Part shown: piece after piece, positions 944 through 19,564 of the stretch | Layout: every line of letters starts with the position of its first letter | Position numbering within the stretch: position 1 is the stretch's first letter | Assembly: GCA_964627825.1 (NCBI GenBank) | Contig: CAZVLJ010000005.1 | Location: 2,289 to 66,288 of the forward strand | DNA from: an uncultured Rikenella sp. | Lineage (GTDB): Bacteria > Bacteroidota > Bacteroidia > Bacteroidales > VadinHA17 | Direction: 5' to 3' | Length of the DNA: 64,000 nucleotides | Position numbers and translations under genes: made by a program | Notes under the pieces: generated by a model | The model's database searches: none | What the model was told of the DNA's origin: nothing | The model's input: the letters and a program-made list of their open reading frames with translations, nothing else

Positions 944-2032
944 ATGGGGGAATCCATAGCATCTGTTCTGGAAAAGGCAAATCCTGACCGGTCAGACATA
1001 CTTGCCATGCTGCAGTGCAGCGAAGAGGAAGCTCCCCTGCTCTATCACAGAGCGGCAGCCGTCAGAGACCGCTATGTAGGGAACCATGTCTACCTTCGCG
1101 GACTGATTGAATTCTCGAATATCTGTGGTAAAAATTGCCTCTATTGCGGTGTCAGACGTGACAACATTAAGATTGAAAGGTACACCATGTCACAGGAGGA
1201 GGTGCTGGAAGCTGCAATGACTGCCTACAAACTCAATCTGGGTTCAATAGCCATACAGTCAGGAGAAAATTCATCAAACAATTTTGTTGAAACTGTTGAG
1301 GAACTGGTAAGGTCTATCCGGAAGATGACCGGCGGAAAGCTGGGTATCACTCTCTCTCTCGGCGAGCAGAGCAGGGAGACCTATCAAAGATGGTTTGACG
1401 CCGGCGCCCACCGCTACCTGCTAAGGATAGAGGCCTCCAGCGAGGCTCTCTACCGGAGGGTGCACCCTGATGATGACATGCACAGGTACCACAGGAGGCT
1501 TGAATGCCTGAAGGCAATACAGGAGACCGGTTACCAGACCGGGACCGGGGTGATGGTGGGATTGCCTTTCCAGACCATGAGTGACCTGGCGGATGATGTG
1601 ATCTTTATGCGTGATTTTGATATTGACATGTGCGGTATGGGGCCATTTATTGAGCACTCAGACACTCCGCTGGGATCAAGAGGTACGGACAACCTGTTCC
1701 TTAATGAACGTTTTAATCTGACTCTCAGGATGATAGCAATATTGAGGATCATCATGAAGGATATCAATATTGTAGCCTCCACAGCCATGCAGACCATTGA
1801 TCCTGCCGGTCGTGAGAAGGCGATTTCATGCGGTGCCAACGTGGTGATGCCCAACCTCACCCCTGCCAGGTACAGGTCAGGTTACCTGATCTACGAAGGC
1901 AAGCCCGGATATATGGAGGCGGATGAGTCCAATGTCAGCGGGCTGAACCTCGACCTGATTCCGGGAACAACCATAGAACCGGGCATATGGGGTGATACGC
2001 CCCACTACATCAGGCGGCGGACCGTGAGGTGA
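944..2032 (+). CDS. hydE: [FeFe]-hydrogenase H-cluster maturase HydE (radical SAM)
   Basis: 362 aa. N-proximal radical-SAM motif CGKNCLYCGVRRDN (CX3CX2C), biotin-synthase-like length and composition, and location beside hydG and [FeFe]-hydrogenase genes. Confidence 0.8.
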   Translation: MGESIASVLEKANPDRSDILAMLQCSEEEAPLLYHRAAAVRDRYVGNHVYLRGLIEFSNICGKNCLYCGVRRDNIKIERYTMSQEEVLEAAMTAYKLNLGSIAIQSGENSSNNFVETVEELVRSIRKMTGGKLGITLSLGEQSRETYQRWFDAGAHRYLLRIEASSEALYRRVHPDDDMHRYHRRLECLKAIQETGYQTGTGVMVGLPFQTMSDLADDVIFMRDFDIDMCGMGPFIEHSDTPLGSRGTDNLFLNERFNLTLRMIAILRIIMKDINIVASTAMQTIDPAGREKAISCGANVVMPNLTPARYRSGYLIYEGKPGYMEADESNVSGLNLDLIPGTTIEPGIWGDTPHYIRRRTVR

Positions 2033-4771: not shown

Positions 4772-5296
4772 TCAGGCAGGAAAGCAGATACTGCCAATGG
4801 CTATTTCCTCAGTCTCGCGCAGTGAACGTTCCAGGGAGGCATACTGGCTTCTGTCACCTGTCAGCTCCAGAATGATCAGTCCGGCCGGCTCACCGAAATA
4901 TATCTCATTGACGCCCAGCCTGGTGCGGATAACACACCCGTAAGTGGTCAGCAACGCCTGTACTGCCAGCCCCAGTTCATCACGTTTCGGCACCATGATA
5001 CCCAGTATTGTGATGCCTTCACACTCCACGGGAGCATCGGAGAAGCCGTGGGAGAATACCATTTCCTTAATGAACAGCCCCTCAATACTCTTCAGCTTTG
5101 CAACCAGATCCTCACAGTCGTCAGCCTGACCTGCAAGGTGGATAACCATGAAACCCTCACGGCTGCACAGTTCATCGTTCAGCTCGTGAAATCCAAGTCT
5201 TGTGCTGACCACGGCAGCATGTTCCGAGAGTGCTTTCTGGACCAGTCCTGCCTCCTTGATCCTGTCAGTGATCTTAATGCCTAATACTCTGACCAT
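4772..5296 (-). CDS. Tandem-duplicated TM1266-like putative iron-only hydrogenase system regulator (two ACT/NikR-C-like repeats)
   Basis: 174 aa. The two halves follow the same pattern: VLGIKITDR..AGLVQKALSEHAAVVSTRLGFHE...GFMVIHLAG..EDLVAKLKSIEGLFIKEMVF versus ITILGIMVPKR..LAVQALLTTYGCVIRTRLGVNE...GLIILELTG..ASLERSLRETEEIAIGSICF. It lies 11 nt downstream of hydG. Confidence 0.6.
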   Translation of the reverse strand: MVRVLGIKITDRIKEAGLVQKALSEHAAVVSTRLGFHELNDELCSREGFMVIHLAGQADDCEDLVAKLKSIEGLFIKEMVFSHGFSDAPVECEGITILGIMVPKRDELGLAVQALLTTYGCVIRTRLGVNEIYFGEPAGLIILELTGDRSQYASLERSLRETEEIAIGSICFPA

Positions 5297-5307
5297 GATA
5301 GTATGTT

Positions 5308-6729
5308 TTAATAGTAAAGGTCCCTCTCACCGTTCCTGATACGCTCAATCTTCTTCCTGATACTCTGCTTCATCCCCTCATCGAGGTCGACCATGTTCTT
5401 TTCAATAGCCTTCCATCCCTTCTCAGCAAGTTCAGGTGAGGCGTAATCAACGATATATTCCGAGAGCGTCAGTATGGCGTTGGGGGTACAGTATCTCTTG
5501 ATAAAGCCAGGCACAGAGAACTCCATGAAATGTTCGCCTGTGCGGCCGAGGCGGTAGCATGCAGTGCAGAATGACGGAATATAGTCGTTGTCTATCAGTT
5601 CATTGATGACATCGGCAAGTGACCTTTCATCATTGATCTTGAACTGCTCGCGGTTGAGGTTCTGCTCGGCATTCTTCGATGCGGAGTAACCGCCAAGTTC
5701 CAGTTTTGTTCCGCCGTCTATCTGTGAGACACCAAAGGCCATTGCTTCGGAGCGTACTGCCGGAGCCTCTCTGGCCGTCAGGATGAGTCCGGTATATGGC
5801 ACCGCAAGGCGAAGGATGGCAATCAGCTTCTTGAAATCGTCATCATTCACATAGTACTTCGGGTTCAGGTTCAGCGCCAGGGCGTCCTTAATCCTTGGGA
5901 AGGAAATTGTGTGCGGGCCAACATTATAGCAGGCCTCCAGGTGGTTGGTGTGCCTTACCAGACCCATCACCTCGAACCTCCAGTCATACAGACCGAAGAG
6001 AGCACCAATGCCTACATCATCAATACCTGCCTCCTGGGCCCTGTCGAGAGCTGTCAGCCTCCAGTTGTAGTCTTTCTTTTTACCTCCCAGGTGATACCAT
6101 GTGTAAGCTTCCGGGTCATAGGTCTCCTGGAAGATCTGGTAGGTGCCTATGCCGGCTCTGCCAACCGTGCGGAAACCGTCTATATCCAGCGGAGCAGCAT
6201 TGATGTTCACCCTGCGAATCTCACCACGGTCTTTCTTGATACCGTAGACGAGCTTCACCGTATGAGCTATGTATTCAGGACCATACTCGGGATGTTCACC
6301 ATAAACAAGTATCAGTCTCTTCTGCCCGTTGTCCTCCAGTGCCTCAACCTCTGCTGTTATGTCGGCATCGGAGAGGGTTTTGCGCCTGGCATCCTTATTC
6401 GTAACCCTGAAGCCGCAATACTGGCAGTTATTGACGCATTTGTTCCCTATGTAAAGAGGGGCAAAAAGCACTATCCTGTTGCCATAAACCTTCTTCTTCA
6501 GTTCGCGTGCTCCGGCTTTGATCTCCTCACCCAGGTCTCCTTCGGCATTGATCAGGGCTGCTGTCTCCGCAAGTGTAAGGCGCTCCTTTGAGAGCGATTT
6601 TGCTATCAGCTCCCTTACTCTCACCCTGTCAGCCCTGTTGTTATTGATAAATGACCACAGCTCGGCAGGATCAATGAACGGCTCCATCCGGCGGTCGGGA
6701 ATACTGCATTTTTCTGGATTGAATTTCAT
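5308..6729 (-). CDS. hydG: [FeFe]-hydrogenase H-cluster maturase HydG (radical SAM tyrosine lyase)
   Basis: 473 aa. Radical-SAM motif CVNNCQYCGF and the C-terminal auxiliary-cluster motif CTAC-X22-C (CTACYRLGRTGEHFMEFSVPGFIKRYC), which is characteristic of HydG. Confidence 0.9.
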   Translation of the reverse strand: MKFNPEKCSIPDRRMEPFIDPAELWSFINNNRADRVRVRELIAKSLSKERLTLAETAALINAEGDLGEEIKAGARELKKKVYGNRIVLFAPLYIGNKCVNNCQYCGFRVTNKDARRKTLSDADITAEVEALEDNGQKRLILVYGEHPEYGPEYIAHTVKLVYGIKKDRGEIRRVNINAAPLDIDGFRTVGRAGIGTYQIFQETYDPEAYTWYHLGGKKKDYNWRLTALDRAQEAGIDDVGIGALFGLYDWRFEVMGLVRHTNHLEACYNVGPHTISFPRIKDALALNLNPKYYVNDDDFKKLIAILRLAVPYTGLILTAREAPAVRSEAMAFGVSQIDGGTKLELGGYSASKNAEQNLNREQFKINDERSLADVINELIDNDYIPSFCTACYRLGRTGEHFMEFSVPGFIKRYCTPNAILTLSEYIVDYASPELAEKGWKAIEKNMVDLDEGMKQSIRKKIERIRNGERDLYY

Positions 6730-6806
6730 CTCGTTATTTTTTTCCCTCCTCCACTAAGAAATTAACACTCAATATACGGAAAATAGCCACCTGTGGTTCA
6801 GACATA

Positions 6807-7718
6807 TCAGAAGATAAGCTCCTCCATCTCCCCTGCCCCGGCAATAAGGGCTTTAGCCGGCTCAGCAAACATTCGGCTCGCATCCAGACGTTTATGAAAA
6901 AAGAGAGTCATTCTCTTGCCCGGGATATCACTCTCATAGTTCTCCAGGTGAAGGAAGAGGTCAGGCAACGGTGCCCCGTTGTCAGGGATAAACACCATAC
7001 CCCTTGAGTAGAATGTCTCTGCGGCGCATGATACAGCATACAGGCCTGGTGCAGGCAGGAGCTTGGTGACGTCAGTTACGGGAATGCGTATCATCGGCAC
7101 CTGCGGACTTATGGCCGGATCCTCCTTTACTGCTGTGCCGATGACAAGATAGAAATGGTCAAGATAGGCATTAGCGCGCTGGATGTATCCCTCTGTCAGC
7201 GCCTGCCTTATACGTGTAGAGCTGACGGTCTCATTCTGCACCTCCTGCATGGGTATCTCTTCGGCCTCAAAGCCGTATTTCTCCCTCCAGGCCCACAACG
7301 TACGATAGTCGCCCTGCTGGTTAAACCCGAAGTGATGATTATGACCCACAACTATCACCTTTGCCCCAAGGGTACCGCAGAGAATATCTCTCACGAACTC
7401 CTCGCTGGTGATCCGTGCAAAATGGCGTGTGAACTCAATAATGATGATATTGTCAAGCCCCGCCTTGCGCAGCAGTTCTATCTTCTCCTCCTGTGAACAG
7501 ATGAGCTTAAGTCCCTTGCCGGCCGTCTCGGGATAGAGGACCACCCTGGGATGAGGATGAAACGTTATTAGTACGCTCTCGCCGTTATGCTCGGAGGCAA
7601 GCTTTTTCAGCCTTTTAATGATTGTCCTGTGGCCAATGTGAACGCCGTCAAAAGTACCCGTGGTCACCACGGGAGCCTGTATTACTGATGCCTCCTGAAA
7701 GCTCCTGAAGATTCTCAT
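6807..7718 (-). CDS. ribF: RibF-like FAD synthetase with a divergent riboflavin-kinase domain
   Basis: N-terminal FMN adenylyltransferase motifs are intact: GTFDGVHIGH, ITFHPHPR, VVGHNHHFGF, VSSTRIRQAL. The C-terminal domain keeps the length and GLYAV but lacks the GFPTAN and NIGxRPT motifs. The start codon overlaps the rex stop (TAATG). Confidence 0.75.
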   Translation of the reverse strand: MRIFRSFQEASVIQAPVVTTGTFDGVHIGHRTIIKRLKKLASEHNGESVLITFHPHPRVVLYPETAGKGLKLICSQEEKIELLRKAGLDNIIIIEFTRHFARITSEEFVRDILCGTLGAKVIVVGHNHHFGFNQQGDYRTLWAWREKYGFEAEEIPMQEVQNETVSSTRIRQALTEGYIQRANAYLDHFYLVIGTAVKEDPAISPQVPMIRIPVTDVTKLLPAPGLYAVSCAAETFYSRGMVFIPDNGAPLPDLFLHLENYESDIPGKRMTLFFHKRLDASRMFAEPAKALIAGAGEMEELIF

Positions 7719-8353
7719 TACCCTGCAGGCTGCTGGTTTTCCTTAACGAAGTAGGCTACTTTCTCTATTGAGGTTATCATATCAAACTCCTCAAGGTATA
7801 CGGTATCAGGGACATTCAGCGGAACGGTTGTGAAGTTCATTATACCCCGTATTCCGTTACTTACCAGCAGTGATGCCACAGATACCGCCTGATCAGCGGG
7901 CACGGCCAGAACGGCAACAGAGATGTCAAGCTCCTCCCGCAGGCTCTTCAACTGGTTAATGTTATGGCATCGAACCCCGGCTACAACCTTATCAACTTTC
8001 TGGGGATCAATATCAAAGGCAGCCACCACATTCATGTTGGTACGTTTGCCCTTAAAGTAACCCGTGATAGCCCGTCCCAGGTTACCCATACCCATGATTG
8101 CCACATTCAGTCCGCTGGGTGCATCAATAATAGTTCCGATTGTTTTTATCAGTTCCCTTACGTCATACCCTTTACGCATCACGCTGCCGTAACCTATGAG
8201 CATAAGATCGCGTCTCACCTGTACGGCAGTGATATGCAGCATTGCTGCAAGCTCATGTGAGAACACATAGTTGCGATTGGCAGCCAGGGTAGCGGCAAGG
8301 GCTCTTCTGTACTGGCTTAGCCGTTCAACGGTCTTTCCTGGGAGTGTTTTCAT
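7718..8353 (-). CDS. rex: Redox-sensing transcriptional repressor Rex
   Basis: 211 aa. N-terminal winged-helix region (TVERLSQYRRAL...FSHELAAML..TAVQVRRDLMLIGY), Rossmann motif IMGMGNLGRAITGY, and AAFDIDPQKV, which is typical of Rex. Confidence 0.85.
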   Translation of the reverse strand: MKTLPGKTVERLSQYRRALAATLAANRNYVFSHELAAMLHITAVQVRRDLMLIGYGSVMRKGYDVRELIKTIGTIIDAPSGLNVAIMGMGNLGRAITGYFKGKRTNMNVVAAFDIDPQKVDKVVAGVRCHNINQLKSLREELDISVAVLAVPADQAVSVASLLVSNGIRGIMNFTTVPLNVPDTVYLEEFDMITSIEKVAYFVKENQQPAG

Positions 8354-9498
8354 ATTCCGGTCTTTAAATTGGAAACCTGTGATCTGGGTATTATCACTGT
8401 GAAGACTGATCCTTTGTCAGGGGCACTCTCCACATTAATCACACCATGATATAGATCGACAACCTTTTTGACTATTGAGAGACCCAGACCGCTGCCGCTG
8501 ATGTTACGTGTCTTGTCATTGCGTATCCGTGAGAACTCTTCAAAAAGCATTTCGCGCTCTTCACTGTTCATCCCTATACCTGTGTCAGCCACCGAAAGGG
8601 AGAACTCATCCTCATTGCAGTTGAGGGTTATCATTACCGTACCTCCGGGATTATTGTACTTGACGGCATTGGAAACGAGGTTATTCATGATTATCTCGAA
8701 ATCATTGGGATCTGCCCAGATGGTCTCACATCCATTGATCTCTGTAACAAACCGTATGTCCTTATGTATGGCATAGGGACTGACTGTCACCACAGCCATG
8801 GAGGCCAGCTCCCTGAGGTTAACGTTCTGCATCTTTTCCATCTGCCTCTCAAAACTCACCTTGGTGAAGTCGAGCAGGTCCATGATCAGGTGCCTCATGC
8901 TGTCAATGCGCTGAAGTGATCTCTCAATGGCAGAGGCATACTCGTCAAGTGAATCACCCATCTGTCTCTCCTGCATCATCTTGAGATATCCTTCCACTGC
9001 ATTCAGCGGGGCCTTCAGCTCGTGTGAGAGCACGGAGAGGAACTGGAACCGGACCTTCCTGCCCTCGACCTTTAGTTTGTGGGTTATCCTGCGCAGGTAT
9101 TGCTGCTTGGTGATCTGTTCTATGGAAGATTTCAGCTCCTGCGGCGTGAAGGGTTTGGGAATAAAGTCAATGGCCCCGTCACTGTGCGCTTTTACAGCGA
9201 CATCGATTGAAGCATATGATGTTATCATGGCCACCACAATGTCATAGTTCTTTTTCCTGACATATTCCAGTACCTCAACCCCCTGTATCCCGGGTAGCTT
9301 ATTGTCAAGAAGCAGGATATCAGGCATCTCCCGGTCAATTATCTCTATTCCCTCCTCGCCGGTCGCTGCCTCCAGTATCTGAAACGTATAATCCTCATCC
9401 ATAAAAGGATAGGTGACATGAAAATTGCCCAGTATCCTGGTTACGCCTGACCTGATACCGGGTTCATCATCTACAACCAGTATTTTCAGCTGTGCCAT
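8350..9498 (-). CDS. Hybrid response-regulator receiver / histidine kinase (REC-HisKA-HATPase)
   Basis: REC domain (LVVDDEPGIR...LLLDNKLPG...IPKPF), then H-box LSHELKAPLNAV and the ATPase boxes NAVKYN, DTGIGM, GSGLGLS. A 4-nt ATGA overlap with the rex start. Confidence 0.85.
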   Translation of the reverse strand: MAQLKILVVDDEPGIRSGVTRILGNFHVTYPFMDEDYTFQILEAATGEEGIEIIDREMPDILLLDNKLPGIQGVEVLEYVRKKNYDIVVAMITSYASIDVAVKAHSDGAIDFIPKPFTPQELKSSIEQITKQQYLRRITHKLKVEGRKVRFQFLSVLSHELKAPLNAVEGYLKMMQERQMGDSLDEYASAIERSLQRIDSMRHLIMDLLDFTKVSFERQMEKMQNVNLRELASMAVVTVSPYAIHKDIRFVTEINGCETIWADPNDFEIIMNNLVSNAVKYNNPGGTVMITLNCNEDEFSLSVADTGIGMNSEEREMLFEEFSRIRNDKTRNISGSGLGLSIVKKVVDLYHGVINVESAPDKGSVFTVIIPRSQVSNLKTGI

Positions 9499-9500
9499 TG

Positions 9501-9893
9501 TCAGATTTTTAAGAGTTTTCTTACTTCCTGTTCAAGCTGCTCGGGCCTCACCCCTTTCTCAAGGTAGAGATCAGCCCTGATCCAGTCGCGATCCTGCTCT
9601 CCGCTGAGCCCGAAAGTGATGCCAGTCTCGCGTGAGACTGCCGTAGCTAGTATCACCGGCACGTCGGGATACCTCCTTTTAAGCTTGTAACAGAGGATAA
9701 AGCCGCTGTCATCACTCTCCATCATCAGGTCAAAGACGGCTATGTCAGGCTTCATTTTGGCAATTACCTGTTCTGCTTCAGTCTGGCTCTCCACGGCTAT
9801 CACCTCGAAGCCGGCCTTACGCAGGTAAAAGGCTGTCTGGAAGAGATAATCGGGATCATCATCAACCAGCAGTACGGTATATACTTTGTTCAT
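9501..9893 (-). CDS. Single-domain response regulator (REC only)
   Basis: 130 aa. LLVDDDPD, phospho-acceptor context AVFDLMME, conserved T/K positions (LATAV, YLEKG). No output domain. Confidence 0.85.
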   Translation of the reverse strand: MNKVYTVLLVDDDPDYLFQTAFYLRKAGFEVIAVESQTEAEQVIAKMKPDIAVFDLMMESDDSGFILCYKLKRRYPDVPVILATAVSRETGITFGLSGEQDRDWIRADLYLEKGVRPEQLEQEVRKLLKI

Positions 9894-9940: not shown

Positions 9941-11905
9941 TTATTCAGGTCTCCTCGGGAGAATTATTTTAAATGTGGTGCCGGTGTCCCCCCTGGACGG
10001 ATCACTGTTTGACTCAACGGTTATCTGACCCTTATGCATCTTGACAATACCATAGGTAGTTGCCAGGCCGAGGCCCGTGCCCTTGCCAAGGCCTTTGGTG
10101 GTAAAAAATGGCTCAAAGATTTTTGGTTTGTCCTCATCCCTTATCCCGCTGCCCGTATCCGAAACGACAATTATCACATCGGCCGCTGTATCCTCCAGGG
10201 TAACAGTCAGTGTCCCTCCCTCCGGCATTGCATCAATGGCATTCCGGAAGAGATTGGTTAGAACCTGGGTCATCTGTTCCGAATCAATAGATGCATCAGG
10301 ACTGGTGGTGCGGTCCTCTATTACAGCCTTTACATTGTCAGGAAAGACTACCCCTGCAATGCTGTTTTCGGTAAGCTTCCTGATATCAATGAACTGGTGG
10401 TTCACCTGGTTCTTGCGGGCAAAGTTCAGCAGGCCTCCTACAATCTTCTTACAACGGGCTGCCTGTTCCACAATGAGTTGCAGGTCTTCGCGGACAGGGT
10501 CCTCAGTAGTGCACTCATCAAGCAGAATGTTGCTGTACATAATGACCACACCAAGGGGATTATTCAGCTCATGGGCAATGCCAGCCGACAGCTGTCCCAT
10601 ATGTGCAAGCTTCTCTGATTGTTTGAGAGCATTCTGCATGGTGGTAAGCTTGGCGTTGGAGAGAGCGAGATCCTGAACTGATCTGTGCAGTTTCTCAATT
10701 GTATACGGCAGGCACATCTCTTCCTCGGCCAGTCCCTTGATTATGGCAATGGCATGGTCATAGCATGTTTCATAGCCACATGCGCCGCAGTTAAGATGAT
10801 CCTTCTCCGTCAGCTTGCCCATTGAGGCGAGGACCTGTTTTACCTCCTCACTGGCAGCTGACATCTGGCGCTTATCTTCAGGACGGTAACGGACAGAGAG
10901 GTCGAGCCTGTCATATAACTCAACATTTTTCTTCCACTCCACTGTATTCAGAGAGGCCATTTTATCCTGTGCATAAGCGCTCACCAGGGCTCTCCTGTTG
11001 TACTGTTTGCCGCCCTTGCTCATGCCGGGACCCATGATGCATCCCTCACAGCAGAGCAGCTCAAGATGCTGACCACCTATCATCCCCTGCTCAAACTCTT
11101 TAATTGCTTCCTGGAAATCAGTCCTTCCTTCTGCTGCAATAATATTTCCTGTTATGGCATCATCATTGACCCCGGCAGTCTGTAACAATCCCCTGGTCAC
11201 AGGGAAGATGGCCCCTCTTCCTCCCAGCGGCGGATCGAACTCCGAAGGTTCTACTGAGTCAGGAGTAATGCCGGCTGTCTCAATCATCTCACGAAGCTCA
11301 ATGAACGTTATGGCCACATCCACCTCCGCGTTCTCAGCTTTCTTGGCCACACAGGGACCGACAAAGACCACGGAGAGGTCATCTCCGTATTTCTTCCTCA
11401 TGACCCTGGTCATTGCCACCATTGGTGAGACTACCGGCACAAGGTTCTCTGTCAGGTCAGGATGATAAAATCTTATAAACGATACTATGGCAGGACAATC
11501 TGATGAGATATAGTTCTGTTTTCCGGCCTCGCTGATCAGTTGACGGTAGCGGTGCGCCACCAGGTCAGCCCCGAAGGAGACCTCGGACACATAGTCAAAG
11601 CCAAGTGATCTAACCATGCCTACAACCTTCTGGTAATCAGTTCCTTCATAGAACTCCGCAGGGAAACTGGGTGCAATGATAGCAGCTTTCCTTCCCGGTC
11701 TGGCCAGTACTTTTTTCACCAGGTCCACGGTATTGACAAAGACCTTGGCTCCCTGGCTGCATACCTTGGTGCAGTTACCGCAGGCGATGCACCTCTCGGT
11801 TATCACCTCAGCCTGTCCGCCAACTATCCGTATGGCCCGGGCAGGGCATTCTCTGACGCAGGTATAACATGTACGGCAAAGCTCTTTTATTGTATATACA
11901 AGCAT
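9941..11905 (-). CDS. [FeFe]-hydrogenase-like (H-domain) putative sensor fused to a histidine kinase
   Basis: N-terminal 2x[4Fe-4S] ferredoxin motifs ([23 protein letters not shown]). H-domain with variant motifs [16 protein letters not shown] and [13 protein letters not shown]. Four-Cys motif [14 protein letters not shown]...MCLPY. Then H-box AHELNNPL and ATPase boxes NAIDAM, DTGSGI, GTGLGL. Confidence 0.8.
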
Positions 11906-11917
11906 ACTCTTATTCTG

Positions 11918-13633
11918 TTAAAGCAAAACATCCCTCTTGCTGAAGTGGGTATGAAATACCTCTTTATCAGCGAGCTCAGAACACTGTTCAAATACCCTGC
12001 CATACAGGCCGGCCACTGCAGCAGACTGTTCGGGTGCCCGCACCGCCTCCTGGTCATCTGTCTGCCATATGAACCTTGAGCGCTGTCTTACTGCCTCCCT
12101 TGAACCGGCGGGCAGCATACCGCCGCCATTGACGCAACCGCCGGGGCAGGCCATTACCTCCACGAGGTCATATTTAGCGCCGGCATCAACCATCTGCCTG
12201 ATCTTTTCCAATCCTTTCAGGCCGTCAACCACGGCCACTGAGTAACTCCTCCCGCCAATAGTGACCATGGTCTCGCGGAAGACCCCGGTGTTCCGCAGCT
12301 TCTTCAGTGCAGGCCTGTCGGCCTCTTTCTCTCCCTTTCTTGCTGCCAGTGACCGCAGCACCGACTCGGTGATTCCACCGGCAGATTCAGCAAGGAGTGA
12401 TGCCGAGCTGCGCAGCTCCATGGGCTCGTCTGCGGGCTCGGGATCGATATTCGTAATGTCAATGCCGTAAAGCACAATAAGTCTTGCCAGCTCCCTGACA
12501 GTCAACACCGTATCAATATCACTTATCCCCTTCCTTGTCATGCTGTCTCTGCGGGCCTCGAACTTCATTGCCGTACAGGGAGTCACTGACACAGTGTAGA
12601 CCCGTGATTTCTCATCGGTTACCGGAACAACCGATTTAATTATTGATCCTGATATCTGCTGTGGTGTTTTGAGAGTTGAGAGAAGGGGCAGCAGTTCAGG
12701 TGTGAACTGCTCGCAATATTTGACCCAGGCGGGACAGGCCGAGACTATGAGCGGTCTCTTTTCCTCGTGATCCTCCGCTTTGATGACAGCATCAGTAAGT
12801 TCGGTTATCAGGATATCAGTTCCTGCTCCGGACAGGAATACTTTATCGAAGCCGGCTTTTCTCAATGCTGCATTGAGCAACCTGTCAAAGTCACGGGTGT
12901 ACTTTACGCCCAGCTCCTCAGCAAGGGCATAGGGTACCAGCGGTGAATACTGTATCACCCGTGTCACGTCGGTCCTGCTGAGCTGTTCCTGAACCTCGGA
13001 GAGGTAATGTTTTTCATGAAGTGCGCCCGTGGGACAAACCAGCACGCACTGACCGCAGTGGATGCAGCTTGAAAAGTTGAAATCGCGGTCCATGGCCGGC
13101 CCCACATGGGTGTATCGTCCCCTGCCTATGAAATCTATTGACGTGGCTGTCACCACCTCCTCGCATACCCTGAGGCAGCGGCCACAGAGTATGCATTTGG
13201 AGAGTTCGCGCACTATGGCGGGGCTCGACTGGTCACGGCGGGGTTTAATCTTGCTGCCGCGTATGCGCCGTTCTCTCACCTGCATCTCATCAGAGAGGCG
13301 CTGGAGCTCACAATCGAGGTTGCGTTCACAATAAAGACAATCATCAGGATGGTTTGAGAGCAGCAGCTCAACAATAGTCTTGCGTGCCCTGATGACCCTC
13401 GGGGAGTGGGTTTTTATCTTCATCCACTCCTCCACTGGTGCCGAGCAGGCAGTAACGAGCCTGTCACGTCCCTCCACCTCCACCACGCACATGCGGCAGG
13501 CACCCGTAGGAGTGAACTCTGCCATCCGGCAGAGGGTGGGTATTATTATGCCGTTGCGATTGAGGGCTGAAAGGATGGTCTCACCCTTTTCCGCCCTGAT
13601 GCTCTTGTTGTTTACTTCAATGGTGAACTGCAT
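11918..13633 (-). CDS. hydA: [FeFe]-hydrogenase large subunit HydA (M3 architecture) with non-canonical H-cluster motifs
   Basis: N-terminal 2Fe-2S motif (CRMAEFTPTGACRMC), His-ligated cluster motif HPDDCLYCERNLDC, two 4Fe-4S motifs (CILCGRCLRVC, CIHCGQCVLVCP). H-domain motifs VSACPAW, TPCTAMKFE and EVMACPGGCVNGGG. Directly downstream of NuoF-like and NuoE-like genes. Confidence 0.85.
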   Translation of the reverse strand: MQFTIEVNNKSIRAEKGETILSALNRNGIIIPTLCRMAEFTPTGACRMCVVEVEGRDRLVTACSAPVEEWMKIKTHSPRVIRARKTIVELLLSNHPDDCLYCERNLDCELQRLSDEMQVRERRIRGSKIKPRRDQSSPAIVRELSKCILCGRCLRVCEEVVTATSIDFIGRGRYTHVGPAMDRDFNFSSCIHCGQCVLVCPTGALHEKHYLSEVQEQLSRTDVTRVIQYSPLVPYALAEELGVKYTRDFDRLLNAALRKAGFDKVFLSGAGTDILITELTDAVIKAEDHEEKRPLIVSACPAWVKYCEQFTPELLPLLSTLKTPQQISGSIIKSVVPVTDEKSRVYTVSVTPCTAMKFEARRDSMTRKGISDIDTVLTVRELARLIVLYGIDITNIDPEPADEPMELRSSASLLAESAGGITESVLRSLAARKGEKEADRPALKKLRNTGVFRETMVTIGGRSYSVAVVDGLKGLEKIRQMVDAGAKYDLVEVMACPGGCVNGGGMLPAGSREAVRQRSRFIWQTDDQEAVRAPEQSAAVAGLYGRVFEQCSELADKEVFHTHFSKRDVLL

Positions 13634-13636
13634 GGC

Positions 13637-15586
13637 TTATTTAACTGTAACAGCACTGAACTTGCATACATCATAACAAATACCGCATCCGATGCACTTG
13701 TCCTCAACAATGAAGAAAGGCTGGAGCCTGGTGCCGTAGATGGCATTTACCGGGCATTTAGCAGCACAGACGGTACACCCGGTACACTTCTCCACGTCAA
13801 TGCTGAATGTTCTCAGTCCCCTACACACATTTGCACGGCATCTTCTGTCAAAGATATGCTCCTCAAATTCCTCCCGGTAGTTAGCCAGGGCGCTGATGAA
13901 AGGGTTTGGTGCCGTCTGCCCCAGTCCGCATAGCGAAGTGTCCTTCATCACCGCAGCGATTGTCTCAAGCTGCATCACCCCCTTGAACCTCTCGAGAGTG
14001 GCGTTGGAGTCCTCACTCAGGGGCTTCCTGACTATGTTTTCAAGTATCTCCAGCATTCGTCCCGTTCCTTCGCGGCAGGGGATGCATTTGCCACAGCTCT
14101 CCCTGTGAATGAACGCCATGTAATACCTCACAAAATCAACCAGGCAGGTGGTCTCGTCAATAATGATGAGCCCTCCTGATCCCATGGCTATGCCGTTTTC
14201 GCGCAACACGTCGAAATCGACCGGCAGATCAAGGTTCTTCTCCGTTATGAAGGTGCCCGAGGGACCTCCTATCTGCAGTGTTTTAAATGCTTTCCCATCC
14301 TTTATGCCATCGGTGATGCCTTCGGCGATTGTTCTGAAGGTGGTGCCCATCTCAACCTCAATGAGGCCCGTGAGCCGTCCCCTGCCGCCCAGGGAAAAGA
14401 GCTTGGTGCCCTTGCTTCCTTCGGTGCCCATTCCACGGAACCACTCCGGACCGTGAGACATGATGAGAGGCACATTCATCAGGGTCTCCACGTTGTTGAT
14501 GACAGTGGGTTTGCCAAAGAGGCCGCTGCTGGTGGGGTATGGGGGTTTGAGCTCGGGCATGCCCCGTTTGCCTTCCAGGCTGGCTATCAGCGCTGTCTCC
14601 TCGCCACACACGAATGCTCCTGCTTCCTCACGGATGACTATCTCCAGATTAAAGCCGCTGGAGAGGATATTGTGGCCCGTGATACCATACTCCGCGGCGG
14701 CGGCAAGAGCCTTGCGCAGGCGGGCAAGCGGGTGAGGCGATCCCGCCTTGAGATAGATGATGGCACTTGATGCCCCGATAGCATACGCAGCAATGCATAT
14801 TCCTTCAATAAGCCTGTGCGGGTCGCCTTCAAGGACAGACCTGTCAGCATATGATCCGGGGTCACTCTCCTTTGCGTTGCAGATCAGGTAGCGGTTATCA
14901 GATGCCGAGTTGAGGGCATACTTCCATTTAAGTCCGGTGTTGAAGCCTCCGCCGCTGCGCCCGCGCAGGCCGCTGCGCTCAACAATATCACAGACCTCCT
15001 CATGCGTGTAATTGCGGATCGTCTTGAGAAAGGCCCTGTAACCTCCCCTGGCAATGTACTCTTCAATGCTCTCCGGATCATAGCATCCGCAGTTGCCCAG
15101 CACAACCCTCTTCTGCAGCCTGAAGAAGGGGATCTCATCAATGAAGGGTATATCATGCCAGGCCTCGAAGCCGTAATTGCCTGATTGTCCGACGAGATCC
15201 TCCTCAGGCATGTCATTGTGGAAGACCCCGTTGAGAAGAGGTTCTACCTTGTCCTCAGTTATATTCCTGAAGACAAGCTTGTTCTTGCCCGGCAGGTGAA
15301 CACACATCACCGGCTCGAATGCGGCAGGACCATGACAGCCGGTGAGCACCACCTCACCCCTGATTTCCATTTCTTCAAGGTACTGCGATGTTGCCGCTGC
15401 CGCGGCTGTACTGCCTGCAATTATTGCAGCCGATCCCGTAGCCACATAGATGACAGGTGCGGAAGGTTTGTCACGACGTATCTCCGAGAGCCGCTTCTCC
15501 GTATCAGCCGGCAGAGTGTCAGAAGCATGGAGCAGTACCTCCCTGATAAGGAATTTCTTCAAATCGGTTTCTGTTTTCTGTTTCAT
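13637..15586 (-). CDS. hydB: NuoF-like flavoprotein subunit HydB of a trimeric (bifurcating-type) hydrogenase
   Basis: 649 aa. FMN/NADH motif GRSGGGFNTGLKWKY, 4Fe-4S motif ESCGKCIPCREGT, C-terminal 2x[4Fe-4S] (CTGCTVCAAKCP, CIGCGICYDVC). Confidence 0.85.
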   Translation of the reverse strand: MKQKTETDLKKFLIREVLLHASDTLPADTEKRLSEIRRDKPSAPVIYVATGSAAIIAGSTAAAAATSQYLEEMEIRGEVVLTGCHGPAAFEPVMCVHLPGKNKLVFRNITEDKVEPLLNGVFHNDMPEEDLVGQSGNYGFEAWHDIPFIDEIPFFRLQKRVVLGNCGCYDPESIEEYIARGGYRAFLKTIRNYTHEEVCDIVERSGLRGRSGGGFNTGLKWKYALNSASDNRYLICNAKESDPGSYADRSVLEGDPHRLIEGICIAAYAIGASSAIIYLKAGSPHPLARLRKALAAAAEYGITGHNILSSGFNLEIVIREEAGAFVCGEETALIASLEGKRGMPELKPPYPTSSGLFGKPTVINNVETLMNVPLIMSHGPEWFRGMGTEGSKGTKLFSLGGRGRLTGLIEVEMGTTFRTIAEGITDGIKDGKAFKTLQIGGPSGTFITEKNLDLPVDFDVLRENGIAMGSGGLIIIDETTCLVDFVRYYMAFIHRESCGKCIPCREGTGRMLEILENIVRKPLSEDSNATLERFKGVMQLETIAAVMKDTSLCGLGQTAPNPFISALANYREEFEEHIFDRRCRANVCRGLRTFSIDVEKCTGCTVCAAKCPVNAIYGTRLQPFFIVEDKCIGCGICYDVCKFSAVTVK

Positions 15587-16050
15587 TTCAGATCAGCCAG
15601 GGCTTTGAGTTTTGCAATCATCGCCGGAATATCCTCCGGCCGGATATGAGTAAAGTACTTTTCATTCACATAGATGACAGGTCCTTCATTACACCCTCCC
15701 TGACACGCCGTCAGTTCATAACTGAACCTGCCATCACGGGTAGTCTGCCCCGGCTCAATGCCCAACGCCTCCTTCACGGCAGTAACCACACCCCCGGAAC
15801 CATTTATGAAACAAGTCGTTCCATTACATATACGCAGATGGATCCTGCCTTCAGGAATGAACCTGAAACGGTCATAAAAGGTAGCCAGCCCATAAATCTT
15901 GGTGGTTGACATATGAAGGAACCTGCCAATGCTAACTATAGCATTCTCAGAGAGATATCCCTCTGCCTCCTGTACGTCCTGAAGGATCGGGATAAGGTTT
16001 TCATGACTCCCCTCCCTGTAGCGGGTCAGTATTTCCTCTATCTTGCTCAT
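15583..16050 (-). CDS. hydC: NuoE-like thioredoxin-fold [2Fe-2S] subunit HydC
   Basis: 155 aa. Cys pattern ICNGTTCFINGSGG...CQGGCNEGPV typical of NuoE/HydC. A 4-nt overlap with the hydB start. Confidence 0.85.
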   Translation of the reverse strand: MSKIEEILTRYREGSHENLIPILQDVQEAEGYLSENAIVSIGRFLHMSTTKIYGLATFYDRFRFIPEGRIHLRICNGTTCFINGSGGVVTAVKEALGIEPGQTTRDGRFSYELTACQGGCNEGPVIYVNEKYFTHIRPEDIPAMIAKLKALADLK

Positions 16051-16219: not shown

Positions 16220-16465
16220 TTGGGACAATCGCACAGCATAGAGATCTGCCTTGGAAGTTCCTGTTTTTCCAGAGGTAACAGGGAGGCGGTTCAGATAATA
16301 AAGGAGTACCTCAGGAAGAATCACCTGGATGACAAGGTGGTGCTCCGGGGAGCCCGCTGCATGAATCATTGCAGTGAAGGTCCGGTCATCATTATTAACG
16401 GAAATACTTTCTTCAGTACAGGCATTCAGGATATTGAAAAGATACTGGAGAGAGAGCTGGTATGA
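16220..16465 (+). CDS. Small thioredoxin-like [2Fe-2S] ferredoxin (NuoE-fold, HfsA-like)
   Basis: 81 aa. Cys pattern ICLGSSCFSRGN...CMNHCSEGPV. Apparent TTG start at 16220 (no in-frame ATG). Immediately upstream of the H-domain-PAS gene. A TActTTTG -7-like box lies at 16184..16191. Confidence 0.65.
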   Translation: MGQSHSIEICLGSSCFSRGNREAVQIIKEYLRKNHLDDKVVLRGARCMNHCSEGPVIIINGNTFFSTGIQDIEKILERELV

Positions 16466-16488
16466 CATGATACACCAACGCATTGATT

Positions 16489-18366
16489 ATGAAGATCCCC
16501 GATCAGGTAATATACATTAATGAGGATAAGTGTCGCAACTCTTATTCATGTGTCAGGGCGTGCCCTGTAAATGCAATCGAGGTCAAGCCCGAGAGGGCGC
16601 ACCCGGTAATCATTGCCGACAGGTGCATAGGGTGCGGGCTCTGTTTTCTTGCCTGTTCACCAGGGGCCATTGAGTTTATGGATTCGAAGGGCCGTGCAAA
16701 GGAGATACTGCAATCGGGCCGTCCTGCTGCTGCCCTCATTGCCCCCAGCATAGCATCTGAGTTTGATGATATCACTGACTATCGCAAGTTCGTGGCCATG
16801 ATACGCAAGTTGGGATTCACCTATGTGCATGAGGTCTCATTCGGAGTTGACCTGGTAGCCTATGCCTACAAAAAGCTCTTCGAGGAGTCGAGCGGCAAAT
16901 ACTACATCACGGCCAACTGTCCATCCATTGTTGAGATGATAGAGAAGTATCATCCTCACCTGGTGCCTAACATGGCCCCGCTGGTTTCGCCGCTTATAGC
17001 CACGGCCATGGTCACGCGCGATCTTTATGGAGAGGAGGTGGCCAATGTGTTTATCGGGCCATGTATTGATATCAAAGCTGAAGCTGACCTGTACAGTGAC
17101 AGGAACCTGGTTGAAGGGGTTCTGACCTTCATTGAGATTCGCCAGCTCTTTGAAGAAAACAACATCCAGGAAAAGACTGTCAAGATGTCTGAGTTTGATC
17201 CTCCCTTTGGCAATTGGGGAGCACTCTACCCCTACCCTGCAGGCATACTGCAGGCAGCGGGCATCAAGCGTGACCTGGTCTCAAGCCAGGTGATCACCGC
17301 CTCCGGGGCTGAGGATGTGAAGGAGGCAATCAATGATTTTGACCATCACATTGATACAATCAGGCATCACTTTAACCTCTTCTTCTGTCCGGGGTGTATG
17401 CTGGGGCCGGGTATGATCAGGCACGATGAGCGCTACCGGCGCCGGTCACTGGTCAAGCAATACGCTGAGAAACGTGTGGAGGTGCTTGACAAGAAACAGT
17501 GGCAGAAGGATATGGACCGTTGGTCAAAGCTTGATCTCACCCGCACCTTCAGGGCCAATGACCAGCGTATTCCCGAACCAACGCCTGAAGCGATAGGCGA
17601 GGTGCTCAAGATAATTGGCAAGGATAACCGGTCAGAGGAGCTTAACTGCAATGCCTGTGGTTACGGCTCGTGCCGCGAGTTCGCATCAACGGTGGCCAAG
17701 GGGCTTGCGGTGCCGGAGATGTGCCACACCTATAACCTGCGAAACAAGCAGGAGTACATTGAAACACTTCGTCAGACCAACAGGAAGCTTTCAGAGACCA
17801 AGAAAGCCCTGAAGGACTCGGAGGAGCAGGCCATGCGTGAAAAGGATGCGGCACAGGATGCCTCTGACACCATGAACAGCATGCTCAACAAACTGCCCAA
17901 CGGGGTGGTCATCGTTGACAATGAGCTGAAGATCCTTCACTCCAATGAACGTTTTCTGGAGATCATAGGTGAGGATGCCAAGGCCATAGCCGAGATCATT
18001 CCCGGGCTCAGGGGGGCTGACCTGAAGACTCTGATGCCGTTCAACGTTTACAATATATTCTCTTTCGTGCTGCGCGAAAATGAATCAGTCATCAGCAGGG
18101 ATGTGCAGCTTGAGGATCATATGTTCAATGTCTCAATCTTCCCCATACGTCAGAACAGGATTGCCGGGGCAGTGATACGTGACCTGTTCTCACCCGAGGT
18201 GCAGCGTGAGGAGGTGATCACCAGGGTTTCAGACGTGATAGACAAGAACCTTGATATGGTGCAGAAGATAGGATTCCTACTCGGTGAGGGTGCCTCCGAG
18301 ACGGAGAAGATGCTCAACTCTATTGTTGAATCATTCCGGCAGAAGAAAAATGAACCGGGAAAATAA
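16489..18366 (+). CDS. [FeFe]-hydrogenase-like putative sensor with C-terminal PAS domain (HydS/HfsB-like)
   Basis: 2x[4Fe-4S] motifs (CRNSYSCVRACP, CIGCGLCFLAC). H-domain variants TANCPSI, GPCIDIKAE and NLFFCPGCMLGPG. Four-Cys motif LNCNACGYGSCREF...MCHTY. A coiled segment, then a PAS-like region (LPNGVVIVDNELKILHSNERFLEIIG). ATG 16489 preferred over the TTG at 16483. Confidence 0.8.
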   Translation: MKIPDQVIYINEDKCRNSYSCVRACPVNAIEVKPERAHPVIIADRCIGCGLCFLACSPGAIEFMDSKGRAKEILQSGRPAAALIAPSIASEFDDITDYRKFVAMIRKLGFTYVHEVSFGVDLVAYAYKKLFEESSGKYYITANCPSIVEMIEKYHPHLVPNMAPLVSPLIATAMVTRDLYGEEVANVFIGPCIDIKAEADLYSDRNLVEGVLTFIEIRQLFEENNIQEKTVKMSEFDPPFGNWGALYPYPAGILQAAGIKRDLVSSQVITASGAEDVKEAINDFDHHIDTIRHHFNLFFCPGCMLGPGMIRHDERYRRRSLVKQYAEKRVEVLDKKQWQKDMDRWSKLDLTRTFRANDQRIPEPTPEAIGEVLKIIGKDNRSEELNCNACGYGSCREFASTVAKGLAVPEMCHTYNLRNKQEYIETLRQTNRKLSETKKALKDSEEQAMREKDAAQDASDTMNSMLNKLPNGVVIVDNELKILHSNERFLEIIGEDAKAIAEIIPGLRGADLKTLMPFNVYNIFSFVLRENESVISRDVQLEDHMFNVSIFPIRQNRIAGAVIRDLFSPEVQREEVITRVSDVIDKNLDMVQKIGFLLGEGASETEKMLNSIVESFRQKKNEPGK

Positions 18367-19564
18367 TCCTTCGGCAGCATTGGAGAAGCAGTTCTTCATA
18401 GAGGTGAACAGCCAGCAGCGCAACCACCATGGTGAGCGTATCTGCGGCGATGTCTTCCTGTCAGAGAACGTGCGGGAAGAAAACCGAATCATCACCGTGC
18501 TCTCTGACGGCATGGGACACGGAGTAAAAGCCAATATTCTGGCAACGCTCACATCCACCATGGCCCTCAATTTCACGAAGGAACACAAGGAGCCTGACCG
18601 CATTGCCGAGATTATCATGAATACCCTCCCGGTCTGTTCGGAGAGGAAGATCAGCTATGCCACCTTCTCCATTGTTGATATTGAGAGCGACGGCCGTGTC
18701 AATATACTGGAGTATGACAACCCGCGCTGCATTATCCTCAAGGGCAGCCAGCCCTTTGAGCCGGGATGGAAGGATGTGGTGCTTGACACAGGCAGAAATG
18801 CAGGCAAACGTCTTCACAAGTGCACTTTCTACCCCGCCAAGGAGGACCGCATTATCCTTCTTTCCGACGGTGTTGCACAGAGTGGCATGGGATCAGCAGC
18901 ATGGCCCCTGGGATGGGAACGTGACAATGTACTGCAGTACGCCATGTCACTTGTCGCAGGAGAGTCATCCATCTCTGCCGGATCACTTGCAGCGAAGATT
19001 GTCAACATGGCCTATAAATATGACAATTACGAGGCCAAGGATGATATCTCGTGCGCCATTCTTTACTTCCGCGAGCCACGCAAGCTGCTCCTCTGCTCAG
19101 GTCCGCCCTATGATGAGGAAAAGGATAAGGAGCTTGCCTCCATGGTTACGGACTACAACGGCAAGGTAATTCTCTGCGGCGGAACCACCGCTGATATTGT
19201 GGCACGAGAGCTGAACCGCAAAATAGTTGATGAGCTTATATTTGAGGATAACGACCTGCCCCCTGAAAGCTTCATGGAGGGAATAGACCTGGTCACCGAA
19301 GGTATACTTACACTGCAGAAGGTAAGTGAGCTGCTGAAGAGCTACAAAAGCAGCGTCAAGCTCGGTAAGGGTCCGGCTGACAAGATTGTCAGGATGATCA
19401 TGGAGAGTGACGAAATCAACTTTGTGGTGGGCACACGGATCAATGTGGCACACCAGGACCCCAGCCTGCCGGTTGATCTTGAGATACGACGGACAGTGGT
19501 GAAGCGCATAGCGCGCCTGCTGGAGGATAAGTGGCTTAAACAGGTAAGTATTGATTATATTTGA
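18350..19564 (+). CDS. PP2C/SpoIIE-family serine phosphatase with an extra C-terminal domain
   Basis: ICGDVF, VLSDGMGHGVKA and LLSDGVAQSG motifs. ATG 18350 (MNRENN...) overlaps the upstream stop by 17 nt; the track ORF starts at GTG 18284. Confidence 0.8.
   Translation: MNRENNPSAALEKQFFIEVNSQQRNHHGERICGDVFLSENVREENRIITVLSDGMGHGVKANILATLTSTMALNFTKEHKEPDRIAEIIMNTLPVCSERKISYATFSIVDIESDGRVNILEYDNPRCIILKGSQPFEPGWKDVVLDTGRNAGKRLHKCTFYPAKEDRIILLSDGVAQSGMGSAAWPLGWERDNVLQYAMSLVAGESSISAGSLAAKIVNMAYKYDNYEAKDDISCAILYFREPRKLLLCSGPPYDEEKDKELASMVTDYNGKVILCGGTTADIVARELNRKIVDELIFEDNDLPPESFMEGIDLVTEGILTLQKVSELLKSYKSSVKLGKGPADKIVRMIMESDEINFVVGTRINVAHQDPSLPVDLEIRRTVVKRIARLLEDKWLKQVSIDYI

Follow-up and report, generated by a model that had tools for sequence, protein, structure and literature searches.

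The closest described relatives of the protein considered here are the HydA subunits of the electron-bifurcating HydABC hydrogenases (group A3; structures 8a6t, 7q4v and 7p5h). The protein, which we call HydA*, is encoded in a stretch of 64,000 nucleotides from an uncultured Rikenella sp. (GenBank assembly GCA_964627825.1, contig CAZVLJ010000005.1, positions 2,289 to 66,288; hereafter the window), and it shares with those subunits homology from end to end, the M3 order of domains, all iron-sulfur (Fe-S) ligands, the HydB and HydC partners and an adjacent hydS gene. It differs from them in the loss of the relay cysteine and of E279, E282, R286, K358, M353, A272 and F417, in scores below the cut-offs of the relevant hidden Markov models, and in a faster-evolving H-domain. 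Residue positions are given in the numbering of the Clostridium pasteurianum hydrogenase CpI, taken from a MAFFT alignment that included CpI, unless a residue of HydA* itself is named. On balance, and without great confidence, we lean towards the view that HydA* is catalytically dead or nearly so and is kept as an Fe-S wire and scaffold for the flavin core formed by HydB and HydC.

The sensory [FeFe]-hydrogenases TmHydS (group C) and TamHydS (group D) resemble HydA* in having a non-protic residue at position 299, a small hydroxyl residue at 353 and no canonical proton pathway. In the profile published for such enzymes, alanine occupies position 299 in about 43% of sequences, and position 353 is glycine, serine or threonine (PMC10055695). 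Other features of the HydS proteins are not present in HydA*, namely an N-terminal part with two [4Fe-4S] clusters only, a cluster of the Cx2Cx4Cx16C type near the C-terminus and a signalling domain such as PAS or a kinase; Pfam detected no PF04060, PAS, HisKA or HATPase in HydA*. Moreover, residues forming hydrogen bonds to the [2Fe] subcluster are reportedly retained in HydS proteins, whereas HydA* has M356 in place of K358 and a leucine in place of S232; HydS-HK, a sensory-type protein encoded in the window, keeps both K358 and S232. The initial annotation called the loss of the relay cysteine a hallmark of sensory-type enzymes. A299 and T353 do fit the sensory profile, but the architecture and descent of HydA* are not those of groups C and D.

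HydA* may also be compared with laboratory variants, namely CpI with C299A or with changes at E279 and E282, and an enzyme in which the lysine at the distal cyanide ligand (CN-) was replaced by asparagine (6gly, 5la3, 6gm1). It combines naturally the changes that were studied singly there; the mutants carry one change in an optimised scaffold, whereas HydA* bears about 12 and has evolved so across many species.

There are precedents for HydA-derived polypeptides with a different task. HylA, a subunit of HylABC-Fdh, is derived from HydA, has no H-domain, has NuoF- and NuoE-like partners and delivers electrons to a catalytic subunit distinct from itself; the eukaryotic Nar1/NARF is a monomeric protein of cytosolic Fe-S assembly. 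Both are kept for their Fe-S clusters rather than for H2 chemistry. HydA* resembles both in the mode of action proposed for it, with Fe-S ligands kept while the [2Fe] environment appears not to be selected, and no shared descent is implied. It differs from them in that the full H-domain with the cubane cysteines is preserved, the loss of [2Fe] being only predicted.

The di-iron pocket of HydA*

The initial annotation placed the gene correctly at 11918-13633; it lies on the minus strand as a single open reading frame (ORF) from ATG to stop, encoding 571 amino acids. Pfam recognises Fer2_4, NADH-G_4Fe-4S_3, two copies of Fer4, Fe_hyd_lg_C (2.6e-64) and, weakly, Fe_hyd_SSU, which gives the order 2Fe-2S, His-ligated 4Fe-4S, two 4Fe-4S, H-domain and a tail resembling the hydrogenase small subunit, that is, the M3 architecture. 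With phmmer the protein aligned end to end with 8a6t_A (HydA of T. kivui, E 3.5e-120), 7q4v_A (A. woodii), 7p5h_A (T. maritima) and CpI. The M3 layout, together with the position of the gene directly after NuoE- and NuoF-like genes, bears out the earlier description of the product as the HydA of a bifurcating trimer by architecture and operon context. An AlphaFold2 model was poor (mean predicted local distance difference test score 59.9, and about 80 in the H-domain only) and was not used for inspection of the pocket; its top Foldseek match, taken as a check of the fold only, was again 8a6t_A.

The assignment of the H-cluster motifs stood up, as phmmer alignment to four chains from the PDB and MAFFT both placed A299 on C299, T351 on M353 and M356 on K358. 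The L3 motif fits ExMxCxxGCxxGGG and keeps M497, while L1 does not match TSCCPxW, nor L2 MPCxxKxxE (Table 1). As had been stated, all four cluster-ligating cysteines are present (C300, C353, C496 and C500, equivalent to C300, C355, C499 and C503 of CpI), and the string CCP occurs nowhere in the HydA* protein. The lysine that had been taken as K358 shifted one position later is, on the other hand, K357, which aligns with K359 of CpI, the second lysine of the canonical KK pair. Since K359 is itself conserved in canonical enzymes, K357 is not a displaced K358.

The losses at C299, M353 and K358 were reported correctly, but the extent of change was underestimated. In the second sphere and pocket, HydA* differs from CpI by C299A, M353T, K358M, A230S, S232L, A272T, F417A, G418E and V423I. 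The group-A proton pathway E279-S319-E282-R286 reads L, S, A, A, so that S319 alone survives. Compared with HydA of T. kivui (TkHydA1), 12 of the 16 pocket and proton-path positions are changed; P231, P324, Q325, E361, M497 and the glycine-rich L3 are retained. Replacement of C299 by anything but aspartate was found to abolish or severely impair activity (PMC10055695), and exchange for asparagine of the residue at the distal CN-, called an arginine in that review, gave an inactive enzyme from which the [2Fe] signals were absent (PMC11376134). The proton pathway itself differs between phylogenetic groups of [FeFe]-hydrogenases (PMC10407848). The effects of the mutations accord with the importance of the sites that are altered in HydA*. 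The asparagine variant is probably K358N of Knorzer et al. 2012.

These changes are reflected in classification. HydA* scores below the curated group-A cut-offs of NCBI, with 337.2 against 405.95 bits for TIGR02512 and 545.7 against 765 bits for NF040763 ('group A6'), and, in keeping with that, relatives of HydA* bear at NCBI no more specific name than '[Fe-Fe] hydrogenase large subunit C-terminal domain-containing protein'. The JGI label for such genes is 'iron-only hydrogenase group A'.

Conservation and descent among Bacteroidota

The altered motifs are not peculiar to the window. Among the 120 closest homologues (66-97% identity), nearly all from metagenome-assembled genomes (MAGs) of Bacteroidales, the motifs [VI]SACPAW and TPC[TM]AMKFE are shared, with alanine at the relay position in 112/120 and xPCxAMKFE in 115/120. 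A scan of one genome per GTDB species, with synteny traced by means of tblastn, yielded 80 loci, all from Bacteroidales or Bacteroidota MAGs, and these carry one module: hydC, hydB, hydA*, hydS (with HisKA-HATPase), a response regulator gene, a gene for a response regulator/histidine kinase hybrid, rex, ribF, hydG and a TM1266-like gene, in this order, with hydE nearby. A divergent arm, opposite to hydC, consists of genes for a small 2Fe-2S ferredoxin, a second HydS with a PAS domain and SpoIIE. The rex gene was present in 70 of the 80 loci and ribF in 68. Pairwise ratios of nonsynonymous to synonymous substitution (dN/dS) between hydA* and 12 close orthologues were 0.03-0.06 overall, 0.006-0.03 in the Fe-S domain and 0.03-0.09 in the H-domain, rough values given that dS is saturated. 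Sequencing error, chance or a pseudogene are ruled out by the conservation of the motifs in the 120 homologues, by intact ORFs in at least 80 species and by these ratios.

We compared 24 degenerate HydA representatives with 63 canonical ones, all taken from clusters at 50% identity. The 16 accessory Fe-S ligands are invariant in the degenerate set (24/24) and nearly so in the canonical set (0-0.45 bits). The four H-cluster cysteines are also invariant in the degenerate proteins (24/24); among the canonical ones C355, C499 and C503 are invariant, and C300 is a cysteine in 50/63. By contrast, A230, A272, C299, M353, K358, V423, M497, E279, E282 and R286, which do not vary in the canonical set (n=63), show entropies of 1.9-3.7 bits in the degenerate set (n=24). 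The two halves of the protein differ in the same sense: the N-terminal Fe-S domain is more conserved in degenerate than in canonical proteins (mean entropy 1.49 versus 2.20 bits), whereas the H-domain is less conserved (2.37 versus 1.87 bits). Orthologues of HydA* read A, S, N, C, L or F at position 299, M, A, R, N, G, H or K at 358, and T, G, H, V, I, N, F or A at 272. Judged from these alignments, selection is strict on the electron wire, including the cubane, and the surroundings of the [2Fe] subcluster and the proton path have been released from constraint or are at any rate constrained in another way. The initial annotation had allowed for an alternative proton path; the hypervariability of the pocket across orthologues points more to loss of the catalytic site than to a tuned path of this kind. 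The alternative pathway of group D (E252/E289 of TamHydS) was considered and rejected: E252 corresponds, by our own mapping, to V423 of CpI, and this position is I, L or M in the subclade of the query, so the relay glutamate is absent.

The degenerate form seems to have arisen from a canonical one. An exhaustive phmmer search of 1.84 billion cluster representatives returned many M3-type relatives of about 550-575 amino acids in which the four cysteines are kept, position 299 is A, S, N, F, L, H or E, and position 358 is M, A, R, G, N, H or another residue. Every such representative whose contig extended past hydA (P0123, P0126, P0127, P0129, P0139, P0138, P0169 and P0394) lies in the same module, at 33-62% identity to the HydA of locus L093; one further representative (P0124) is on a contig of 5.9 kilobases that has hydC and hydB upstream and stops at hydA. 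A profile built from distant members recovered Bacteroidota HydA proteins named '[FeFe] hydrogenase, group A' by NCBI, and the three that we examined all stand in the same module. One of them (P0396, locus L093, Bacteroidales) matches T. kivui HydA at 16/16 indexed positions. Another (P0317, L094) retains the relay cysteine, M353, K358, M497 and the entire proton path and differs at five second-sphere positions, and the third (P0413, L092) keeps most of the pocket with E279T, E282L and R286K. Since the module is found elsewhere among Bacteroidota with a HydA that is canonical throughout, HydA* is, on comparison of sequence and synteny, a derived orthologue of canonical bifurcating-type HydA and not a member of a sensory group or of a separate paralogue family. 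In a neighbour-joining tree, from which the pocket and proton-path columns had been left out, the degenerate lineages (query/P0121, P0394/P0336, P0124/P0411 and others) arise more than once, on longer branches, within a clade of Bacteroidota in which the pocket is otherwise intact. The tree is distance-based and bears no support values, and the placement of deep long branches in it may be an artefact. Membership in sensory group C or D was rejected on architecture and tree position, the best PDB and NCBIfam matches being to group A.

Many HydA proteins of 574 amino acids from Bacteroidota (P0309-P0426, loci L092-L094) belong to the same module, keep the pocket and have V, Q, M, L, I or T in place of E279, and about 20 of 118 proteins of this type carry a natural C299D (SADCP...). 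These pocket-intact proteins lead by degrees from canonical HydA to the degenerate form. Within the degenerate group, P0394 (L091, 9001-10767) is an independently altered HydA of 588 amino acids with F299, S353 and R358, which stands in the midst of relatives with an intact pocket. Genes for C69 and M14 peptidases border its locus, as they do in the window, and the length of the gene, 1767 nucleotides, is exactly that of the 'group A3' gene of B. caccae in PMC12578642. In the same study, the 'group A3' subunit of B. thetaiotaomicron reached 0.22% of CrHydA1 activity after artificial maturation and was barely transcribed, at about 3-5 transcripts per million (PMC12578642). This low-activity enzyme may be related to the HydA* variant, which we mention as a lead only.

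In the literature on HydABC/Bfu variants and on the BfuABC-T clusters of Hydrogenedentota we found no published description of the HydA* variant, and it is not discussed in the survey of the Bfu family, in the Hydrogenedentota BfuABC-T paper or in the 2024 paper on archaeal hydrogenases. Homologues of HytA without the L1-L3 motifs were excluded from one survey of bifurcating enzymes (PMC6085437). Nor did we find a well-characterised active clade in which the residues of HydA* are the norm.

Probable catalytic loss or a possible sensor-grade H-cluster

From the pattern of conservation described above, HydA* most likely carries no functional [2Fe] subcluster, and fast H2 catalysis would be gone. 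The full electron wire, composed of the 2Fe-2S, the His-ligated 4Fe-4S, two 4Fe-4S clusters and the [4Fe-4S]H cubane, is nevertheless kept, and purifying selection would retain the protein as an Fe-S wire and dimerisation scaffold of the flavin/iron-sulfur module HydBC. The partners fit such a picture. HydB (PDB matches 7t2r_B, 9n5u_B and 7q4v_B, E <= 1e-166) keeps the ligands of the flavin mononucleotide (FMN) domain, of the N3-type cluster and of the C-terminal 2x[4Fe-4S] domain in all lineages, and HydC keeps its 2Fe-2S ligands, so that HydA*BC matches the cofactor set of BfuABC-type bifurcation (FMN/NAD(H) site, N3-type 4Fe-4S and 2x[4Fe-4S] of BfuB, the 2Fe-2S of BfuC and the BfuA clusters that feed BfuB). 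These core ligands, together with the dN/dS ratios, indicate that the complex is maintained and not decaying. The maturases HydG and HydE encoded nearby would then serve the two sensory proteins of the module, HydS-HK, whose pocket is conserved, and HydS-PAS, whose pocket is mostly conserved.

The role of such a complex is the weakest step of our argument. We favour, as an inference only, a low-flux or regulatory redox function in which HydA*BC would couple the poise of NADH and ferredoxin to the H2-sensing two-component system, and we think that it does not dispose of bulk H2. A bolder version, which we hold to be improbable, is that the HydA of a HydABC-plus-sensor module has been turned repeatedly into a pseudo-hydrogenase in many Bacteroidota, HydA*BC being an input device that integrates redox signals. 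The Fe-S wire would in that case bring the NADH/NAD+ and ferredoxin pools, through the flavin core at which bifurcation occurs, into equilibrium with the Fe-S clusters of the H2-sensing HydS histidine kinase, which is translationally coupled, and the phosphorelay would report the thermodynamic headroom for H2 formation rather than H2 concentration alone.

The two sensory proteins provide an internal control for what a conserved pocket looks like in this module. In HydS-HK from about 90 loci, A230, P231, A272, P324, G353, K358, K359, E361, F417 and L497 are present without exception, and S232 is replaced in a single sequence. Position 299 is aspartate (SSDCPAIV) in all but two of the sequences, and this residue is present in 78/80 loci and in 9/11 distant loci; aspartate is the sole C299 substitution reported to keep activity in prototypical enzymes (PMC10055695). 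In HydS-PAS, N299, V272, G353, Y417 and F497 are found in 70/70 orthologues of the 80-locus set, while the distant loci L089 and L090 differ. Its position 358 is A, I, S, T, N or V and never lysine, and the next residue, K359, is invariant; it would seem that the CN- contact is made by K359 instead, or else that HydS-PAS has no normal H-cluster.

Several observations weigh against the loss of catalysis and of the cofactor, and most of them favour instead a HydA* that holds a complete H-cluster and acts as a hydrogenase of slow, sensor-like or strongly biased character, at rates comparable to those of HydS and with water-mediated or novel proton transfer. A299 and T353 match sensory enzymes that do bind the H-cluster, such as TmHydS (A131), in keeping with the sensory profile (PMC10055695), and TmHydS, which has alanine at 299, far exceeds CpI C299A in activity. 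The 80 sequences of the query's subclade (62-97% identity) vary less at the altered pocket than across the H-domain as a whole (mean 0.42 versus 0.97 bits for H-domain columns): S230, Q325, M358 and E418 are invariant, and T272, A299, T353, A417 and M497 are nearly so. This conservation, taken with the retention of M497, P231, P324, Q325, E361, the glycine-rich L3 and the four cysteines, fits a pocket that may still hold something. The invariant E418 stands beside the F417 position, the site of Y223 in TmHydS, which has been discussed as a possible start of a proton relay. HydS-PAS lacks K358 while the rest of its pocket is invariant, and the loss of K358 may therefore not diagnose the loss of the cofactor. 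HydG and HydE are, in addition, encoded in the cluster. The proposed role is weakened, too, by two loci (L076 and L035) in which hydCBA* is kept and the downstream hydS-HK is absent, the former also having neither response-regulator gene and the latter lacking the hybrid one, which means that the link between HydA*BC and that sensor is not obligatory. A transfer of catalysis to HydS-HK in the course of HydA degeneration is unsupported, the pocket with D299 being the same beside canonical and degenerate HydA and HydS-HK being absent from these two loci.

The match to the sensory profile, the conserved pocket of the subclade and the K358-less HydS-PAS make a sensor-grade H-cluster a serious rival. 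Buried residues are, however, conserved with or without a cofactor, so that conservation alone cannot settle the question. Orthologues in the same module vary freely at A272, C299, M353, K358, F417, V423 and M497, as the two true sensors do not, and some of them place a bulky F, H, I or N at 272, where alanine is otherwise invariant. In the query subclade itself, where position 299 is alanine in 75/80 sequences, position 358 is neither lysine nor arginine, L, I or V stands in place of E279, positions 282 and 286 are hypervariable, and the group-D relay glutamate is missing. We regard a sensor-like enzyme as possible but doubtful.

It is very unlikely, in our view, that HydA* is a normally active bifurcating subunit in which a clade-specific proton pathway and new CN- contacts compensate for the changes. 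The intact HydBC core and operon organisation, the strong purifying selection and the variation of the proton pathway between phylogenetic groups (PMC10407848) would agree with it. Yet 12 of 16 positions that are invariant in the 63 canonical representatives are changed, no acidic or protic replacement is conserved across the orthologous group, and single substitutions at several of these sites cripple the model enzymes. Other Bacteroidota, moreover, keep the canonical residues in the same module, and thus the host background does not demand the change.

Least probable of all is that hydCBA* no longer have a function and are disappearing, so that of the whole module just the genes for sensors and regulators would matter. 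In the most divergent lineages HydA*, HydB and HydC do change more quickly than HydS-HK (33-37%, 37% and 54-55% identity to L093 for HydA, HydB and HydS-HK, respectively), and HydC of L089 and L090 has no recorded Pfam family. Against this, more than 80 species-level genomes have intact ORFs, dN/dS stands at 0.03-0.06 for the whole gene and at 0.006-0.03 for the Fe-S domain, and all Fe-S ligands of HydA*, HydB and HydC are kept even in the most divergent lineages, including all four HydC cysteines and all core HydB cysteines in L089/L090. The HydC genes in question lie at 6644-7099 (L089) and 6630-7073 (L090).

The module in the window and its implications

The genes around hydA* are listed in Table 1. 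They are tightly packed: hydC and hydB overlap by 4 nucleotides, the gap between hydB and hydA* is 3 nucleotides, and hydS-HK starts 12 nucleotides past the hydA* stop.

Table 1. Features of the hydA* locus, with coordinates in the window
Feature	Residues	Coordinates	Strand	Description	Basis
HydA*		11918..13633	-	M3-type [FeFe]-hydrogenase-like large subunit, degenerate di-iron pocket, proton pathway gone	Pfam, phmmer PDB, NCBIfam, Foldseek
L1 motif VSACPAW	297-303	12725..12745	-	A299 = CpI C299 relay position; C300 = cubane ligand
L2 motif TPCTAMKFE	351-359	12557..12583	-	T351 = M353, C353 = C355, M356 = K358, K357 = K359, E359 = E361
L3 motif EVMACPGGCVNGGG	492-505	12119..12160	-	M494 = M497, C496 = C499, C500 = C503; canonical
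Segment LITELTDAVIKA		12776..12811	-	in place of the CpI E279/E282/R286 proton-pathway helix (L, A, A)
HydB		13637..15586	-	NuoF/BfuB-type flavoprotein, C-terminal 2x[4Fe-4S] domain
HydC		15583..16050	-	NuoE-type thioredoxin-like [2Fe-2S] subunit
HydS-HK		9941..11905	-	sensory-type H-domain protein: 2x4Fe-4S, H-domain, C-terminal 4-Cys FeS domain, fused HisKA + HATPase
Response regulator		9501..9893	-	single-domain
Hybrid response regulator / histidine kinase		8350..9498	-
Rex		7718..8353	-	redox-sensing repressor
RibF		6807..7718	-	RibF-type FAD (flavin adenine dinucleotide) synthetase
HydG		5308..6729	-	H-cluster maturase	TIGR03955, 477 bits
TM1266-like protein		4772..5296	-	putative iron-only hydrogenase system regulator
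HydE		944..2032	+	H-cluster maturase	TIGR03956, 322 bits
Mini-ferredoxin		16220..16465	+	81 amino acids, truncated thioredoxin-like [2Fe-2S]; TTG start; first gene of divergent operon	PF01257 8.2e-10; CxxxxC...CxxxC
HydS-PAS		16483..18366	+	second sensory-type H-domain protein
SpoIIE		18284..19564	+	SpoIIE/PP2C-type phosphatase, HydS-PAS partner

The gene for the mini-ferredoxin lies directly upstream of hydS-PAS, and a gene of the same size and family occupies this place in L086, L089-L092 and L094. The SpoIIE ORF as listed begins with GTG 83 nucleotides inside the end of hydS-PAS, and its true start is probably further downstream. In HydB of the window, the N-terminal thioredoxin-like [2Fe-2S] site (residues ~46-95) is without its ligands, reading A53, C84 and A88; cysteines are found there in L081, L086 and L088 and in the solved BfuB chain 7t2r_B, the loss being patchy across lineages. 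No Rex operator (TTGTGAAN4TTCACAA, up to 3 mismatches) was found in the region between hydC and hydS-PAS, and the two matches elsewhere in the window are at chance level.

Classification based on homology would file HydA* genes as group A or A3 electron-bifurcating hydrogenases, while they and genes like them probably make little or no hydrogen. If the clade is catalytically dead or of sensor grade, estimates of the H2-production potential of Bacteroidales in digesters, sediments and peat would be too high. The same 13-gene module occurs with a canonical HydA, with the loss of E279 only, with a natural C299D and with a thoroughly degenerate HydA, and thus constitutes a natural experiment. This series of variants can show which second-sphere residues are needed for insertion of [2Fe] and for proton transfer, and what the bifurcating HydBC core does when its hydrogenase partner is disabled.

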